This document shows positions 3,303-63,061 of a stretch of DNA of 64,000 nucleotides, in pieces. The position numbers and the translations under genes are program-made. This stretch comes from an uncultured Acetobacteraceae bacterium (GTDB lineage: Bacteria > Pseudomonadota > Alphaproteobacteria > Acetobacterales > Acetobacteraceae). The stretch is taken from NCBI GenBank assembly GCA_964236585.1, contig CAXSFE010000002.1, forward strand, positions 8,171-72,170, written 5' to 3'. Each line of letters opens with the position of its first letter. The first letter of the stretch is position 1. Under the pieces are notes generated by a model. It ran no database searches. It was given only the letters and a program-made list of their open reading frames with translations, and was not told where the DNA came from.

Positions 3303-3353
3303 CCAAGGGCCCAGCCCTTGGCGGGGTCCAGGGGCAGCGCCCCTGGCCTTGCC
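3303..3353. repeat. mosaic palindromic intergenic element, single arm (R1)
   Basis: CCAAGGGC-CCA-GCCCTTGG followed by CCAGGGGC-AGC-GCCCCTGG-CCTTGCC. It ends 4 nt before the stop of the CDS at 3357. Confidence 0.8.
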
Positions 3354-3356
3354 TTC

Positions 3357-3785
3357 CTACGACCGGTATTCCGCCGGCACCGGCATGTTGTTCGCCGGGT
3401 TCGTGTCGTGCCGCGTCATCCCCGCGACGACGCCCTGGCCCACCAGCGGCTGCAGCCCGGCGGCCAGCGTGTCCGCCTCGCCCAGCGAGTAGACCTCCTG
3501 CCCCGCGACGTGGAGGGCAAAACTCCTGGCGTGCGCCGCGCCCTTCACCGGGTCGTCCAGCGTCGCCTTCGTCCAGCGATACAGCGGAAATGCGTCCGGC
3601 CCCTCGCGCTCCGCCTCGGCGACGTAGGCCGAGAACGCGTCGAACTGGCTCCTCATCGTCGCCCGCTGCGCGCCGAGCACCGCCTGCAGCGGCCCCAGCG
3701 CCGGATCGCCCGGGTCCGCGCGCAGCCGTTGCGCCATCGTATCGTCCAGCGTGATCCGCACCTGGTGGCGCCACTGCTCGTCCAT
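3357..3785 (-). CDS. hypothetical protein
   Basis: Track ORF 3357..3872. ATG at 3783-3785 (MDEQWRHQVRITL...) is preceded by AGGAG at about 9 nt. Coding-like G/C third positions. Confidence 0.55.
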   Translation of the reverse strand: MDEQWRHQVRITLDDTMAQRLRADPGDPALGPLQAVLGAQRATMRSQFDAFSAYVAEAEREGPDAFPLYRWTKATLDDPVKGAAHARSFALHVAGQEVYSLGEADTLAAGLQPLVGQGVVAGMTRHDTNPANNMPVPAEYRS

Positions 3786-3878
3786 CGCACCCGCTCCTGT
3801 CCCGCGGCCCGGCGGCGGCCGGGCAGGGGAGACATGGGCGCCCTGCGCACGCCGCCAACTCGCGGTGGCCAAGCGGAA

Positions 3879-4128
3879 GCAAGGCTGGGCTCTGCCCAGA
3901 CCCGCAAAGGGCCGGAGGCCCTTTGATCCCGCTCCTTCAAGGCAAGGACTCAGGGCAAGCCGTGACTGTGCCCTGGCACGAACAGCACGATCGACTGGCG
4001 CAGGCTGCTGCCCAAGGCAGAGAAGGCCAGGGACCCCGCCAAAGGCACCCCTTTAAGTTTCGCCTCTCAAGTCATGCCGGTCCAGGGGCGGCTCGTCCCT
4101 GGCGGGTCTGGGCAGAGCCCAGCCTTGC
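3879..4128. repeat. mosaic palindromic element, expanded composite copy (R2)
   Basis: The left arm (3879-3930) is GCAAGGCTGGGCTCTGCCCAG + CAAAGGGCCGGAGGCCCTTTG. The right arm (4076-4128) is CCAGGGGCGGCTCGTCCCTGG + CTGGGCAGAGCCCAG-CCTTGC. An extra degenerate arm lies at 4023-4057 and about 90 bp of unique core at 3931-4022. Confidence 0.8.
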
Positions 4129-4162
4129 TTTGCCTGAGAGCCAACAAACCCGGCCGCCGCCC

Positions 4163-59491: not shown

Positions 59492-62167
59492 TCAGTTTAG
59501 CGCGGCGAGTGCTCCGCGCACGGCATCGAACGCCGCCTGCGTCCCGGCGATGTCCGGGCCGCCGCCCTGGGCCACGCCAGGCTTGCCGCCGCCGCCCTTG
59601 CCGCCGACCGCGGCGCTGGCGGCCCGCACAAGATCCACGGCGCTGACCCGCGCGGTCAGGTCGTCGGAGACCACGACCACGATGCTGACCTTGGCCTCGG
59701 CGGTGGAGAGCGCGGCGACCACGCAGGACTCGCCGAGCTGGCGGGCGATGGTCTCGGCCAGGCCGCGCAGGTCGCGGGCGGCCACGTCGCCGAGGTTGCG
59801 GGCTGCGAGGCGGACGGCGCCGATCTCCTCGGTGGCCGCAGCCGCGCCCTCGGTGGCGAGGCGGCGCTGCAGCTCGGAGACCTGGCGTTCCAGGCGGCGG
59901 CGGTCGTCGGCCAGGACGGTGATGCGCTCGACCAGTTCGGCGGGGTTCACCTTCAGGGCGGCGGCCGCCTGCGCGAGGCGCGTCTCGGTTGTGACGACCA
60001 GGGCCTCCGCGGCGGCGCCGGTCACCGCCTCGATGCGGCGGACGCCCGCGCTGACGGCGGACTCGGAGACGATGCGGAACAGGCCGATGTCGCCGGTGCG
60101 CCGGACGTGGGTGCCGCCGCACAGCTCGGTGGACCAGGCGCGGTGGCCGTCGAGGTCGGGTACGCCCATGGCGACGACGCGGACCTCGTCGCCGTACTTC
60201 TCGTTGAACAGGGCCATGGCACCCTCGGCGACGGCGGCCTCGGGGGTCATCAGGCGGGTGGTGACCTCGGTGTTCTCGCGGATGCGGGCGTTGATCTCGG
60301 ACTCGACGGCGGCGAGCTCCTCGGCGGTGACCGGGCGGGGCTGGCTGACGTCGAAGCGCAGGCGGTCCGGCGCGTTCAGGCTGCCCTTCTGCGCGACGTG
60401 GGTGCCGAGACGGCGGCGCAGCGCCTCGTGCAGCAGGTGGGTCGCGGAGTGGTGGGCGCGAATGGCGCCGCGGCGGGCGTGGTCGACCTCGGCGGCGACG
60501 GGCATGCCGGTGCGCGCGGTCCCTTCCTCGACGCGGCCGAGGTGGACGAACAGGTCGCCCAGGCGGCGCTGGGTGTCGGTGACGACGATGCGCAGTCCGT
60601 CGCCGGAGAGGGTGCCGGTGTCGCCGACCTGGCCGCCGCTTTCGCCGTAGAACGGGGTCTGGTTCAGGACCACGGCGACCTCGGTGCCGGTGGCGGCCTC
60701 CGCGACGATGGCGCCGCCGGCGACGAGTGCGAGGATCTGCGCCTCGGAGGTCTCGGTCGCGTAGCCGAGGAACTCGGTGGGGCCCACGGCCTCGCGCAGC
60801 TCGAACCAGACGCGCTCGGTGCCGGCGTCGCCGGAGCCGGCCCAGGCGGCGCGGGCGCGGCGGCGCTGCTCGGCCATGGCGGTCTCGAAGCCCGCGACGT
60901 CGACGGCGCGGCCCTCCTCGCGGAGCGCGTCCTGCGTCAGATCGAGCGGGAAGCCGAAGGTGTCGTAGAGCTTGAACGCGACGTCGCCGGGCAGCGTGGC
61001 GGTCTCGCCCAGGCGCGCGGTCTCCTCCGCGAGCAGGCCGAGGCCGCGCTCCAGCATCGCCTTGAAGCGGGTTTCCTCGAGCCGCATCGTCTCGCCGATC
61101 AGGGTCTCGGCGCGGACCAGCTCCGGGTAGGCGCCGCCCATCTGGCGGACGAGCGCGGGCAGCAGGCGGTCGAAGGTCGGGTCGCGCGTGCCCATGCGGT
61201 GCAGGTGGCGCATGGCGCGGCGCATGATCCGGCGCAGCACGTAGCCGCGGCCCTCGTTGGAGGGCAGCACGCCGTCGGCGATCAGGAAGGCGGTGGCGCG
61301 CAGGTGGTCGGCGACCACGCGGTGGCTGGCGCGGAACTCTCCGGCCGACGGCTGTCCGGTGGCGTCGACGCTGGCGGCGATCAGCGCGCGGAAGGTGTCG
61401 GTGTCGTAGTTGTCGCCGACGCCCTGCAGCACCGCGGCGATGCGCTCCAGGCCCATGCCGGTGTCGATGGAGGGACGGGGCAGGAGGGTGCGGGTGCCCT
61501 TCTGGCCGGGTGTGGGAGGCGGCCCCTCCTCCTCCTGCATGAACACGAGGTTCCAGATCTCGGTAAAGCGGGCGCCGTCCTCGTCGGGGGAGCCGGGCGG
61601 GCCGCCGGCGACACCCTCGCCGTAGTCGTAGAAGATCTCCGAGGAGGGGCCGCACGGGCCGGTGTCGCCCATGCGCCAGAAGTTGTCGTCGGACGCGATG
61701 CGGATGATGCGGCGCTCGTCCAGGCCGGCAATGCGGCGCCACAGCTCGGCGGCCTCGTCGTCGTCGTGGTACACCGTGACCAGCAGACGGTCGGCGGGGA
61801 TGCCGAAGGTCTGGGTCAGCAGCGTCCAGGCCAGCTCGATCGCGAGCGGCTTGAAATAGTCGGCGAAGCTGAAGTTGCCGAGCATCTCGAAGAAGGTGTG
61901 GTGGCGCACTGTGTAGCCGACGTTGTCGAGGTCGTTGTGCTTGCCGCCGGCGCGCAGGCACTTCTGCGCCGTGGCGGCGCGGGTGTAGGGGCGGCGCTCC
62001 TGGCCGGTGAAGACGTTCTTGAACTGCACCATGCCGGCGGCGGTGAACAGCAGCGTCGGGTCGTTGCGCGGCACCAGCGGGCTGCTCTCCACCACGCGGT
62101 GCTCGCGGGCGGCGAAGAAGTCGAGGAACGCCGCGCGGATGTCGTTGCTTGACAGGGCAGGGGGCAT
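59492..62167 (-). CDS. alaS: alanine--tRNA ligase
   Basis: Starts at ATG 62165-62167 ([50 protein letters not shown]). The editing-domain HSATHLLH and CGGTHV motifs are present. Confidence 0.95.
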
Positions 62168-62234
62168 GGGGCTCGGGCTTGTCCTGGATGGTGCTGTTTC
62201 CAGTAGCGCACGCGTCTGCGGGGCGGAAGGGAGG

Positions 62235-62351
62235 AAGGCCAGGGCTCTGCCCCTGGACCCCGCCAAAGGCTCGCCTTTGGAATCCTATACTTAAGTCAGG
62301 GGATCAAAGGGCCTCGGGCCCTTTGCGGGTCTGGGCAGAGCCCAGCCTTGC
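62235..62351. repeat. mosaic palindromic element (R14)
   Basis: AAGGCCAGGGCTCTGCCCCTGG + CCAAAGGCTCGCCTTTGG, a CTTAAG centre, then CAAAGGGCCTCGGGCCCTTTG + CTGGGCAGAGCCCAG-CCTTGC. It lies between the divergent alaS and deoxyribosyltransferase starts. Confidence 0.95.
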
Positions 62352-62393
62352 TTGCCTCTCGACCGGAGCATCCCCCCCACGCACAATGCCGCG

Positions 62394-62945
62394 GTGAGCA
62401 AGCGTGTGTATCTGGCCGGGCCGGACGTGTTCCTGGCCGACGCCGCGGACAGGGGCGAGCGGCTGAAACGGATCTGCGCCCGTCACGGCTTGGCCGGCGT
62501 GTTCCCGCTCGACCCGCTGGAGGGCGAGCCGCCGGGGTGGGCCTTGCTGCCGCCGGCGCGCGCGATCGCGTTGCGCAACGAGGCGCATATCCGCGGGTGC
62601 GACGCGCTGGTCGCGAACCTGACGCCGTTCCGGGGGCCTGGGGCGGATGGCGGGACGGCCTACGAGCTGGGTTTTGCCCGCGCGCTGGGGCGGCCGGTGT
62701 TCGGATGGAGCAACGCGGCGGGCAGCTATCTGGAGCGGTGCGCGCGCTGGCCGGGGGCGGTGCGGGTGGGTGCTGCGTGGCGGGACCCGGACGGGCTCGA
62801 GATCGAGGCATTCGAGTTGCCGGACAACCTGATGCTGGCGTGCGCGGTAGCAGAGGTGGTGGCCGGCGCGCCAGGGGCGGGGTGGGGGGACCTCGCGGCC
62901 TGCGAGCGGTGCGTGGCGCTGGCGGCGGGGGTTCTGGGGAAGTAG
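62394..62945 (+). CDS. nucleoside 2-deoxyribosyltransferase-family protein
   Basis: GTG at 62394 (VSKRVYLAGPDVF...). The upstream TTG of the track ORF lies inside the repeat. Carries DGGTAYELGFA. Confidence 0.7.
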   Translation: MSKRVYLAGPDVFLADAADRGERLKRICARHGLAGVFPLDPLEGEPPGWALLPPARAIALRNEAHIRGCDALVANLTPFRGPGADGGTAYELGFARALGRPVFGWSNAAGSYLERCARWPGAVRVGAAWRDPDGLEIEAFELPDNLMLACAVAEVVAGAPGAGWGDLAACERCVALAAGVLGK

Positions 62946-63061
62946 GGCCAGGGCTCTGCCCTGGAGCTGCCAAAGGGCGAGCCCTTTGGAAACCACACCT
63001 TAAGTAAGGCCGGTCCAGGGGCGGCTCGCCCCTGGCGGGTCTGGGCAGAGCCCAGCCTTGC
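62946..63061. repeat. mosaic palindromic element (R15)
   Basis: It starts directly after the stop codon. GGCCAGGGCTCTGCCCTGG + CCAAAGGGCGAGCCCTTTGG, a CTTAAG centre, then CCAGGGGCGGCTCGCCCCTGG + CTGGGCAGAGCCCAG-CCTTGC. Confidence 0.95.

Follow-up and report, generated by a model that had tools for sequence, protein, structure and literature searches.

What are the palindromic sequences that occupy so many of the gaps between genes in this DNA, how have they been copied, and why are they kept? The stretch that raises these questions (64 kb of contig CAXSFE010000002.1, hereafter the window) belongs, to judge from its DNA and protein matches, to an uncultured lineage of Acetobacteraceae. Its GC content is 70-77% across most of its length, and it carries ordinary chromosomal genes (purA, a hisZ-like gene, alaS, recA, icd, purK, dksA and a flagellar cluster). 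The contigs nearest to it are 84-93% identical in nucleotide sequence, and the majority of them lie in metagenome-assembled genomes (MAGs) labelled Acetobacteraceae, with several others in MAGs that bear the name Janthinobacterium lividum. A first-pass annotation had listed 15 copies of a two-armed palindromic element in this window and had compared them to repetitive extragenic palindromes (REPs) and bacterial interspersed mosaic elements (BIMEs) rather than to a rigid MITE (a miniature transposable element bounded by inverted repeats). We think it probable, though well short of certain, that the elements are high-copy non-coding palindromes of the REP, BIME and REPIN kind, that an enzyme copies them at the level of DNA, and that they persist at the 3′ ends of genes, where they do no harm and probably serve as terminators or protectors; both the mobilization and the RNA role are what we infer. 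For comparison we use stretches fetched from other genomes (loci L016 to L136), about 100 of which entered the arm counts; the syntenic loci of relatives were obtained through their PurA homologues.

Census and architecture of the repeat

A 17-base core, GGGCTCTGCCCN{2,3}ACCCGC (that is, GGGCTCTGCCC, 2-3 nt and ACCCGC), is matched 16 times in the window against 0.00 expected from 100 shuffles, and a 9-mer loop core, GGCTCTGCC, is matched 28 times against 2.1 expected. All 15 listed copies were recovered by nhmmer with a ten-copy profile, each within a few bases of where it had been placed, and the same was true of R1, a covariance model built from an alignment (A1) of 28 window arms that were picked solely by their loop motif. 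R1 finds these 28 arms at 59-76 bits and an interrupted arm (7659-7774) at 43 bits, which bears out the conserved arm architecture. It also adds a degenerate arm at 9933-10005 (27.4 bits, E 1.9e-5), so that the original list was correct in every entry but one entry short. The total is thus 16 intergenic sites in 64 kb, or about one per 4 kb, with 58 hairpins in 29 arms and none in the body of a coding sequence. The family is wider than the window, as had been supposed, since R1 finds 213 arms in 656 kb of related contigs. Rfam gave no match at the gathering score across the window, and only sub-threshold noise of the miRNA-hairpin type at an E-value threshold.

The basic module of the family consists of a perfect hairpin, short and rich in GC, with an unpaired tail of ACCC(C)G or RAYCC after it, and two such modules in tandem make an arm. 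The usual unit of about 125 bp consists of two inverted arms around a centre of about 10 nt containing CTTAAG (ACTTAAGT), and its ends read GcAAGcAAGG...CCTTgCTTgC. Sequence conservation starts abruptly at the arm terminus, G-c-AAG-c-AAGG; the terminal inverted repeats of roughly 30 bp described earlier are present, but they reach a few bases further than had been thought. The outer hairpin has a stem of 6-8 bp (for example, CTGGGC, CCAGGGC, CCAGGGGC or TTGAGGC) and a TCT or GCT loop, and after it comes GAC(C)CCGC, an unpaired linker that is better conserved than any other single-stranded part of the arm. The inner hairpin, with a tail of GACCGG, GATCCC or GAAWCC, belongs to one of three main types: type A (CAAAGGGYC-loop-RRCCCTTTG), type B (CCAGGGGC-GAGCC-GCCCCTGG) or type C (CCAAAGGC-2-4 nt-GCCTTTGG). 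The centre is relatively AT-rich within a 73% GC genome; it was also considered as an IHF site, but the match to the consensus, judged by eye, is poor.

Besides the three inner types, the modules come in several outer variants, with two kinds of centre and one variant whose loop is long. The earlier statement that arm flavors are combined freely goes too far, since B with C is the commonest pairing and the outer variant correlates with the inner type. The second type of centre, of about 50 nt, gives an element of about 165 bp, and its two examples in the window (19904-20070 and 24988-25152) are reverse complements over their full length. The long-loop variant carries a 56-nt extension (CCCTCCGYTGSCCATTCCAATGGCCCAAGCGGGCCATCGGAACCTTTGGSCAGCYAC) that always occupies the same point of the outer TCT loop and has its own stem with compensatory changes, and it could be either a nested insert that targets the loop or a subtype of arm with a long hairpin. 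It is found at 7677-7732 in the window, near 5800 and at 14383 and 18058 in L118, at 11537 and 7111 (minus strand) in L122, and at 13842 in L127. In the last three loci many elements also have a further module, TGACCTGTCAG, that lies at the terminus immediately beyond the CAAGCAAGG end (for example, L122 5940-5955 and L127 4417-4432), which is missing from the window copies.

The 16 sites of the window are listed below; a strand is given for the two sites that consist of one arm.

3292-3355, minus strand: single arm of type C (R1 68 bits, also found by nhmmer) between convergent stops at 3224 and 3357; outer hairpin CCAGGGGC-GCT-GCCCCTGG, inner hairpin CCAAGGGC..GCCCTTGG.
3876-4131: composite, the 250-bp copy, 32 nt from the stop of an S9 peptidase gene; arm A at 3876-3934 (plus), a weak, degenerate and decayed internal arm at 4018-4065, and arm B at 4073-4131 (minus).
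6297-6425: canonical, A with C, centre CTTAAG; the orthologous copy in L108 is 86% identical.
7659-7846: extended-loop, the 186-bp copy; 56-nt extension at about 7677-7732 in the left outer TCT loop, right arm at 7783-7842.
9933-10005, minus strand: degenerate single arm (R1 27.4 bits) abutting the stop of a beta-lactamase-family gene.
14114-14240: canonical, B with C, between convergent genes.
19904-20070: long-centre subfamily (about 165 bp), found by R1.
23641-23772: canonical, A with C; the upstream TGA stop (23640-23642) lies within the terminal TGAAGGAAGG.
24988-25152: long-centre subfamily, reverse complement of 19904-20070, between the hisZ-like gene and purA.
26543-26674: canonical, B with C, 6 nt past the purA stop.
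29252-29380: canonical, B with B, between convergent genes.
30548-30678: canonical, B with C, 93% identical to 26546-26672; without a counterpart in L116 and L125.
37126-37255: canonical, B with C, in the convergent gap of dksA and flgH, from stop to stop.
58371-58498: canonical, A with B, filling a convergent gap; a TGA stop (58370-58372) lies within the terminal motif.
62230-62355: canonical, C with A, in a divergent gap that has the alaS start (62167) on one side and, on the other, the probable GTG start (62394) of a gene of the deoxyribosyltransferase family.
62939-63065: canonical, C′ with B, between convergent genes; a TAG stop (62943-62945) lies within the terminal GAAGTAGGG.

How the arms are paired was counted for 243 arms in the window and the comparison loci. 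Pairs with their termini outward number 69, against four in the opposite arrangement and none in tandem, and 97 arms are solo. The gaps within the outward pairs have a sharp mode at 9-15 nt and a minor one at 50-97 nt. The description of the family as a REP- or BIME-like mosaic, and not a rigid MITE, holds in that the hairpin or arm is the repeated unit, as seen from solo units, alternative arrangements and arm types that differ at orthologous sites. Nevertheless, the dominant form is a doublet of tightly fixed spacing, as in REPINs, and not a loose mosaic.

The stems are maintained by compensatory change. In the set of 28 arms from the window, standard pairs make up 95.9% of stem cells; both sides change at nine of the 16 pairs, and there are 53 double-changed cells against three G-U. 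When the partner is slid by 1-3 columns as a control, pairing falls to 26-62%. A larger alignment of 150 arms from related contigs shows 98.6% of cells paired and 413 double changes against eight one-sided ones (slid controls, 20-63%); because it is fitted to R1 and made of the best-scoring matches it leans towards pairing, but the window set, chosen by loop motif, has the same pattern. A single site illustrates such a change: where the window has CCAGGGGC-AGC-GCCCCTGG, the orthologous copy in L108 has CCAGAGGC-AGA-GCCTCTGG, a compensatory change of G:C to A:T. When the two inner hairpins of one element are of different types, no pairing between them is possible; each is nonetheless perfectly palindromic by itself, which argues that the conserved unit is the local hairpin and not a long helix from arm to arm. 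The near absence of G-U pairs indicates that the constraint is equal on both strands, and stems held to Watson-Crick pairs alone appear to point to a constraint at the DNA level. DNA hairpins, duplex palindromes or an RNA that works from either side would all fit such strand symmetry.

Placement at gene ends

Elements fill six of the eight convergent gaps in the window and one of the eight divergent ones, and the others lie in nine tandem gaps. In eight of these nine the element is nearer to the upstream stop (0-32 nt) than to the downstream start; in the ninth, that of 19904-20070, the distances are 35 nt to the stop and 28 nt to the start. Overall, 15 of the 16 sites abut a stop codon. That no copy lies inside a coding sequence, as first claimed, is correct, with the qualification that three elements overlap the last or stop codon of the upstream gene: the terminal motif itself contains the stop, a TGA in TGAAGGAAGG twice and a TAG in GAAGTAGGG once. 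The claim that copies can span from stop to stop is borne out between dksA and flgH. For asymmetric elements there is no consistent orientation relative to the upstream gene, and since the stop-proximal arm type varies, orientation is not tied to transcription. Between 37255 and 58371 (21 kb) there are no copies, and this stretch consists mostly of tightly packed flagellar operons with few gaps. Within it, at 45746-47648, the GC content drops to 62%; after an AdoMet-decarboxylase-family open reading frame (ORF; 45759-46427) come about 1.2 kb in which no gene is called with confidence, and then fliP, and no repeat copies are present.

There are also oddities of annotation. In the stretch 62352-62394, the longest ORF of the deoxyribosyltransferase-family gene begins at a TTG inside the repeat end, although its likely start is the GTG at 62394 (VSKRVYLAG), and purA has a similarly overlong start, with an ORF of 463 aa for a real protein of 429 aa. 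Automatic calls may thus extend genes wrongly into repeats. Between the repeat and the purA start (25153-25247) is a block, GGCTGGCGYGYGCC..GGGTGGCACA..GGCCGGCA...GGGAAGCTGGAGGACTGGCGGATG, that is kept in five species (orthologues in L116, L118, L121 and L122) while the rest of the gap is variable, and it may be a purA promoter or leader.

When transcribed, the elements are predicted to fold very stably. Six element transcripts were folded from one or both strands, with energies between -68 and -99 kcal/mol and z-scores between -3.8 and -7.4; the predicted folds join the two outer arms and leave inner hairpins of unlike type local. When 19 kb were scanned leniently for terminators, four sites came up, three of which are a distal outer hairpin followed by CCTTTCTTCC, ACCTTGCTTT or CCTTGCTTCT, so that the terminal outer hairpin with its CCTTGCTTCC tail passes at three elements, with a weak U-tract. 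Because the termini are conserved, a weakly U-rich tail follows the last hairpin in both reading directions. Such tails would be compatible with bidirectional termination or with protection of 3′ ends, though they are no evidence for one or the other. Placement and predicted stability would likewise suit the termination, 3′-end protection or insulation that had been proposed as roles. Transcripts of the elements would fold into very stable hairpins and then have a CCUUGCUUCC tail, whichever strand is read, and the transcribed elements would probably be bidirectional terminators or 3′-end protectors. Liang, Rudd and Deutscher reportedly found in 2015 that Escherichia coli REPs within 15 nt of stop codons lower translation or lead to tmRNA tagging.

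It is conceivable that the hosts alone are responsible for the elements, in that bidirectional terminators or stabilizers of mRNA 3′ ends were spread by selection and gene conversion with no dedicated enzyme. The abutment on stop codons and the filling of convergent gaps would be expected from this, as would the extreme stability of the RNA folds on both strands and the presence of almost no other terminator-like sites in the region. Stems of Watson-Crick pairs only would likewise suit a structure that is transcribed from either strand. Moreover, one orthologous copy is conserved like coding DNA: the element at 6297-6425 and its counterpart in L108 are 86% identical, compared with 86-90% for the flanking genes and 57% and 29% for the remainder of the same gap. 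Yet close relatives (L116/L121) manage without elements at three sites, where their gaps measure 9-37 bp, one copy lies between divergent starts, orientation is random relative to the upstream gene, and the U-tract is weak. Selection alone also leaves the near-identical variants of 125-165 bp at unrelated sites unexplained. We therefore consider host selection by itself an unlikely account, although not a negligible one.

Copying of elements between sites and species

The comparison of orthologous regions that had been proposed as a check did reveal differences of presence and absence between species. The element that follows purA occurs in the window, L081, L118, L122/L123 and L125 but is missing in L116/L121, which also have none at the 29255 and 30552 sites; among the window, L118, L122, L125 and L127 the three sites are occupied, although L125, like L116, has no element at 30552. 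The convergent gap between panC and a glycosyltransferase gene is short in the window and L116, but in L127 it contains a full element, in L118 one of the long-loop form, and in L125 a lone outer hairpin. The gap corresponding to 24988-25152 is either re-moduled or empty in relatives. Arm types also differ between species at the orthologous 29255 and 37129 sites, the former having other types in L125 and L127. Density varies as well, with 11 elements in 21 kb of L122 and none in L124, whose PurA is 89% identical.

Distinctive variants reveal what is copied. The 56-nt extension is found at seven non-orthologous sites (7659-7774 in the window and six in L118, L122 and L127), the long-centre form recurs at unrelated sites, and two copies 4 kb apart (26546-26672 and 30548-30678) are 93% identical, which together indicate that whole elements are copied. 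Our proposal is that a trans-acting enzyme that recognizes hairpins in single-stranded DNA would make the copies at the DNA level. Most likely this would be an HUH/Y1 tyrosine transposase of the REP-associated tyrosine transposase (RAYT) or TIRYT type whose gene lies in another part of the genome. Modules would then be reshuffled as the many copies recombine or undergo gene conversion with one another, and copies would persist only where they are harmless, which is to say at the 3′ ends of genes.

Alternatively, the element could be a MITE in the classical sense, derived by deletion from an insertion sequence (IS); a DDE transposase that recognizes inverted termini of about 20-30 bp would then move the 125-bp unit as a whole. 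Conserved inverted ends (G-c-AAG-c-AAGG), a fixed length and arm spacing, and the spread of whole-element variants would all agree with this, and a relative does carry an IS5-like DDE gene. However, whatever the boundary offset, the 49 elements examined lack direct repeats of 3 bp or longer, and such target-site duplications would be looked for in a MITE. Furthermore, arms and single hairpins occur alone or otherwise arranged in other taxa, arm types are exchanged at orthologous sites, and blastn of the full element against 72,556 plasmids returned solely arm-sized matches (Rhodovastum, Pseudoroseomonas and two Streptomyces plasmids) and no parent IS. The IS5-like gene (L118 149-1456; DUF772 and DDE_Tnp_1) stands where the window and L116 have a GDSL-lipase-family gene, and was rejected as a parent since there are no inverted repeats like the element ends around it. 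A MITE origin is accordingly improbable in our estimation. Still less probable is that the palindromes are binding sites, recognized as duplex or cruciform, for a protein that structures DNA or acts in replication or recombination: E. coli BIMEs do bind IHF, gyrase and Pol I, and the strand-symmetric, Watson-Crick-only constraint, the AT-rich centre and the regular dispersal of about one element per 4 kb would suit such a role, but it explains neither the tight association with stop codons nor, beyond the missing gaps, the absence from the 21-kb flagellar stretch.

Copying by an enzyme that would recognize single-stranded hairpins, together with retention at gene ends, thus remains the account that we prefer, but several observations weigh against it. 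Searches with E. coli RayT and 11 RAYT and TIRYT proteins, alphaproteobacterial TIRYTs included (taken from Additional file 5 of Di Nocera 2013), gave no tblastn match in 1.05 Mb, that is, in the window and all fetched loci; this negative is weak, because the DNA represents small slices of many genomes. The genes bracketed by arms are all housekeeping genes, ten in other loci among them. On Skermanella plasmids and on two metagenome contigs, the repeats that flank TIRYT genes are of the unrelated AAAAGGGGTCAGAGTCATTTTT kind, with no arms nearby, and the arms have neither the GTAG tag at which the E. coli RAYT cleaves nor a CGTC tag. A clean pair of filled and empty sites with intact flanks was not found among the loci compared; the empty sites of L116/L121 also lack the adjacent bases, which leaves the element borders undefined and precise insertion or excision unproven. 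One copy (62230-62355), counted with the others in the first-pass annotation and real, is the only one away from 3′ ends, its gap being that of two divergent promoters. Only about five T in 8-10 nt come after the terminal hairpin, a poor U-tract, and the 150-arm alignment is, as noted, composed of matches to the model itself.

Other results concern the same searches. In the window and loci, a regular expression for the HUH and Y-x-NP motifs and tblastn with E. coli RayT gave nothing, in agreement with the earlier statement that the window has no transposase or RAYT gene, and tblastn of RAYT and TIRYT proteins against the plasmids found nothing in Acetobacteraceae. The TIRYT loci of Skermanella, Rhodospirillum and the two metagenome contigs were considered as possibly linked to arms, but do not match the arm model. 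The AAAAGGGGTCAGAGTCATTTTT inverted repeats stand beside Y1 (PF01797) TIRYT genes at L131 2370-2450, at L134 5925-5950 and 6745-6770, and at L136 5920-5975 and 6735-6790; in L136 they form full palindromes, and in Skermanella the motif occurs three times upstream of the TIRYT gene. A metagenome scan for close strains yielded only four relatives, at no more than 72-77% protein identity, and no near-identical strain.

Known repeat families and the reach of the module

Where does this family stand among those already described? Its members are high-copy extragenic palindromes, mosaic and with linker motifs, located downstream of genes and between convergent ones. They resemble the BIMEs of E. coli in having interchangeable palindromic modules with linker or centre motifs and in lying after genes and in convergent gaps. 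BIMEs have roles in mRNA stabilization, transcription attenuation and protein binding, which are the roles proposed for this family. Nevertheless, the sequences are unrelated, doublet spacing is much more uniform here, and the Acetobacteraceae loci have no tandem alternating clusters.

A second resemblance is to REPINs, which are REP doublets that form hairpins in Pseudomonas fluorescens and E. coli and are mobilized by RAYTs (PMC3116915; PMC2817692). In both cases short palindromes are inverted at a fixed short spacing (the outward pairs at 9-15 nt in our count), solo units resemble decay products, extragenic copies number in the hundreds to thousands, target sites are not duplicated, and a hairpin is joined to an unpaired conserved tag. 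The arms described here differ in having two hairpins where a REPIN unit has one, in that the tag is not GTAG but ACCC(C)G, placed on the 3′ side (the other strand reads GGGTC), and in that no RAYT was found in the DNA searched. The arm alignment shows GAC(C)CCGC 3′ of the outer hairpin in place of a GTAG tag. Moreover, GTAG repeats have frequent G-T pairs (PMC3733652), whereas the stems here are perfect Watson-Crick helices, which sets the two families apart.

In Alphaproteobacteria the predominant REPs are of the CGTC type: the terminal tag is CGTC (or TGTC/CCTC), the 8-9-bp stem opens with two A-T pairs, the loop measures 4-5 nt and the tail is CCA. They are stated to be missing in Acetobacteraceae (PMC3733652). 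These, too, are small tagged stem-loops, mostly in head-to-head dimers downstream of genes, with no known dedicated transposase. In contrast, the stems of our family begin with two C-G pairs, the loops are TCT, GAGCC or 2-4 nt, there is no CCA tail, and the reverse strand has GGTC, GATC or TTTC before the hairpins, so that the tag is GGTC/GGGTC at best. The supplements of the same survey name none of the six module-bearing genera that we looked up there (Methylobacterium, Rhodospirillum, Magnetococcus, Nitrosospira, Streptomyces and Desulfovibrio). The TIR families, or TIRtrons, flank TIRYT genes; some are double palindromes, occur in dimers or clusters and are moderately abundant, and they share a GGGGWSAS motif (PMC3733652). 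The reverse strand of our arms, GGGGTC(C)AG...AGAG, is faintly similar to that motif, a lead more than a match, but the AAAAGGGGTCAGAGTCATTTTT repeats around TIRYT genes do not match the arm model.

Similarities of size and form extend to the Correia elements of Neisseria, ERIC of enterobacteria, RUP of pneumococcus and RIME of Sinorhizobium, which are intergenic, about 100-180 bp long and imperfectly palindromic over their whole length, and form long RNA hairpins that affect neighboring transcripts. Correia and RUP elements have target duplications and IS-like terminal inverted repeats, whereas no duplications are seen here; the 72,556 plasmids searched, rhizobial megaplasmids among them, showed no similarity beyond arm-sized matches. 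With respect to MITEs moved by DDE enzymes, the inverted termini are present, but the 49 copies have no target duplication and these partial data contain no parent IS. The core sequence was not found in the literature that we searched, nor were such repeats described there for Roseomonas, Acetobacteraceae or Methylobacterium. This is a new family within the known REP/BIME/REPIN kind, and by its mode of working it is closest to REPINs and BIMEs.

The underlying module is not confined to Acetobacteraceae. An exact-pattern scan of GTDB genomes (596 Gb) found at least 115 stretches, but a 17-base pattern is expected to match about 100 times by chance in so much DNA, and many matches in Clostridia are of this sort. 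We therefore took a match to be other than chance when the exact pattern was followed by a second hairpin and tail for which it had not been selected. Among the matches listed, the two-hairpin module is seen in Methylobacterium/Methylorubrum, Rhodospirillum, Phaeospirillum, Rhodopila, Acidocella, Magnetococcus, Nitrosovibrio, Desulfovibrionaceae, Solidesulfovibrio, a MAG of Acidobacteriota and a 35% GC MAG of Magnetobacteriaceae (Nitrospirota). The arrangement can differ: in Methylobacterium/Methylorubrum the modules form head-to-head dimers, outer hairpin to outer hairpin. In the Magnetobacteriaceae MAG one GC-rich two-hairpin module (L025 2090-2175) lies in a 63-nt gap between convergent stops, bracketed by AAAAAGGCA ... 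TGCCTTTTCGGTTTTT and apparently inside a AAAAGGCA...TGCCTTTT hairpin of the host, as if it had been inserted into the loop of a native bidirectional terminator. A plasmid of Streptomyces sp. NBC_01298 (L129 2995-3165) has six perfect hairpins in tandem, with ACCCC(G) after every one of them; they lie in 1.4 kb of non-coding DNA beside a very large UvrD-helicase-domain gene.

It is tempting to see in these occurrences a third, uncatalogued superfamily of tagged palindromes beside GTAG and CGTC, made of a perfect hairpin with an ACCC(C)G tail and propagated through single-stranded DNA by an enzyme not yet connected with it. The expansion in some Acetobacteraceae, to roughly a thousand or more copies of the two-armed doublet with two hairpins per arm, would then supply most of the 3′-end hairpins of the genome, and the whole would span at least Alpha-, Beta- and Deltaproteobacteria-like lineages, Actinomycetota, Acidobacteriota and Nitrospirota. 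As a joint claim this is speculative, and we would sooner expect some part of it to fail than all of it to hold.

If the density in the window is genome-wide, the elements would make up about 3% of the genome and one of them would separate most convergent gene pairs, in which case transcript ends, operon boundaries and assembly quality would be shaped by them across a group of Acetobacteraceae. The family also offers a clean system in which to study the mechanism that copies palindromic repeats and the reasons for their retention, given its Watson-Crick stems, its module swaps at fixed sites and its recurrence in distant phyla, an AT-rich genome included. It is also of note that neither a GTAG tag nor a RAYT was found in the partial DNA searched. 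On the practical side, the arm model can be used to annotate these repeats, and it could flag mis-binned contigs. Two MAGs labelled "Janthinobacterium lividum" (JBPBQS01 and JBPBQX01; L017, L018, L056, L074, L092, L105 and L108) have repeat-bearing contigs of 73% GC, and one of these loci, L108, is 88% identical to positions 6005-8762 of the window. Alphaproteobacterial DNA of such composition under this label means that the bins or the labels are wrong, and that the DNA is that of Acetobacteraceae. A contig with a full element in a "Solirubrobacterales" MAG (L016) may reflect a similar mislabelling.

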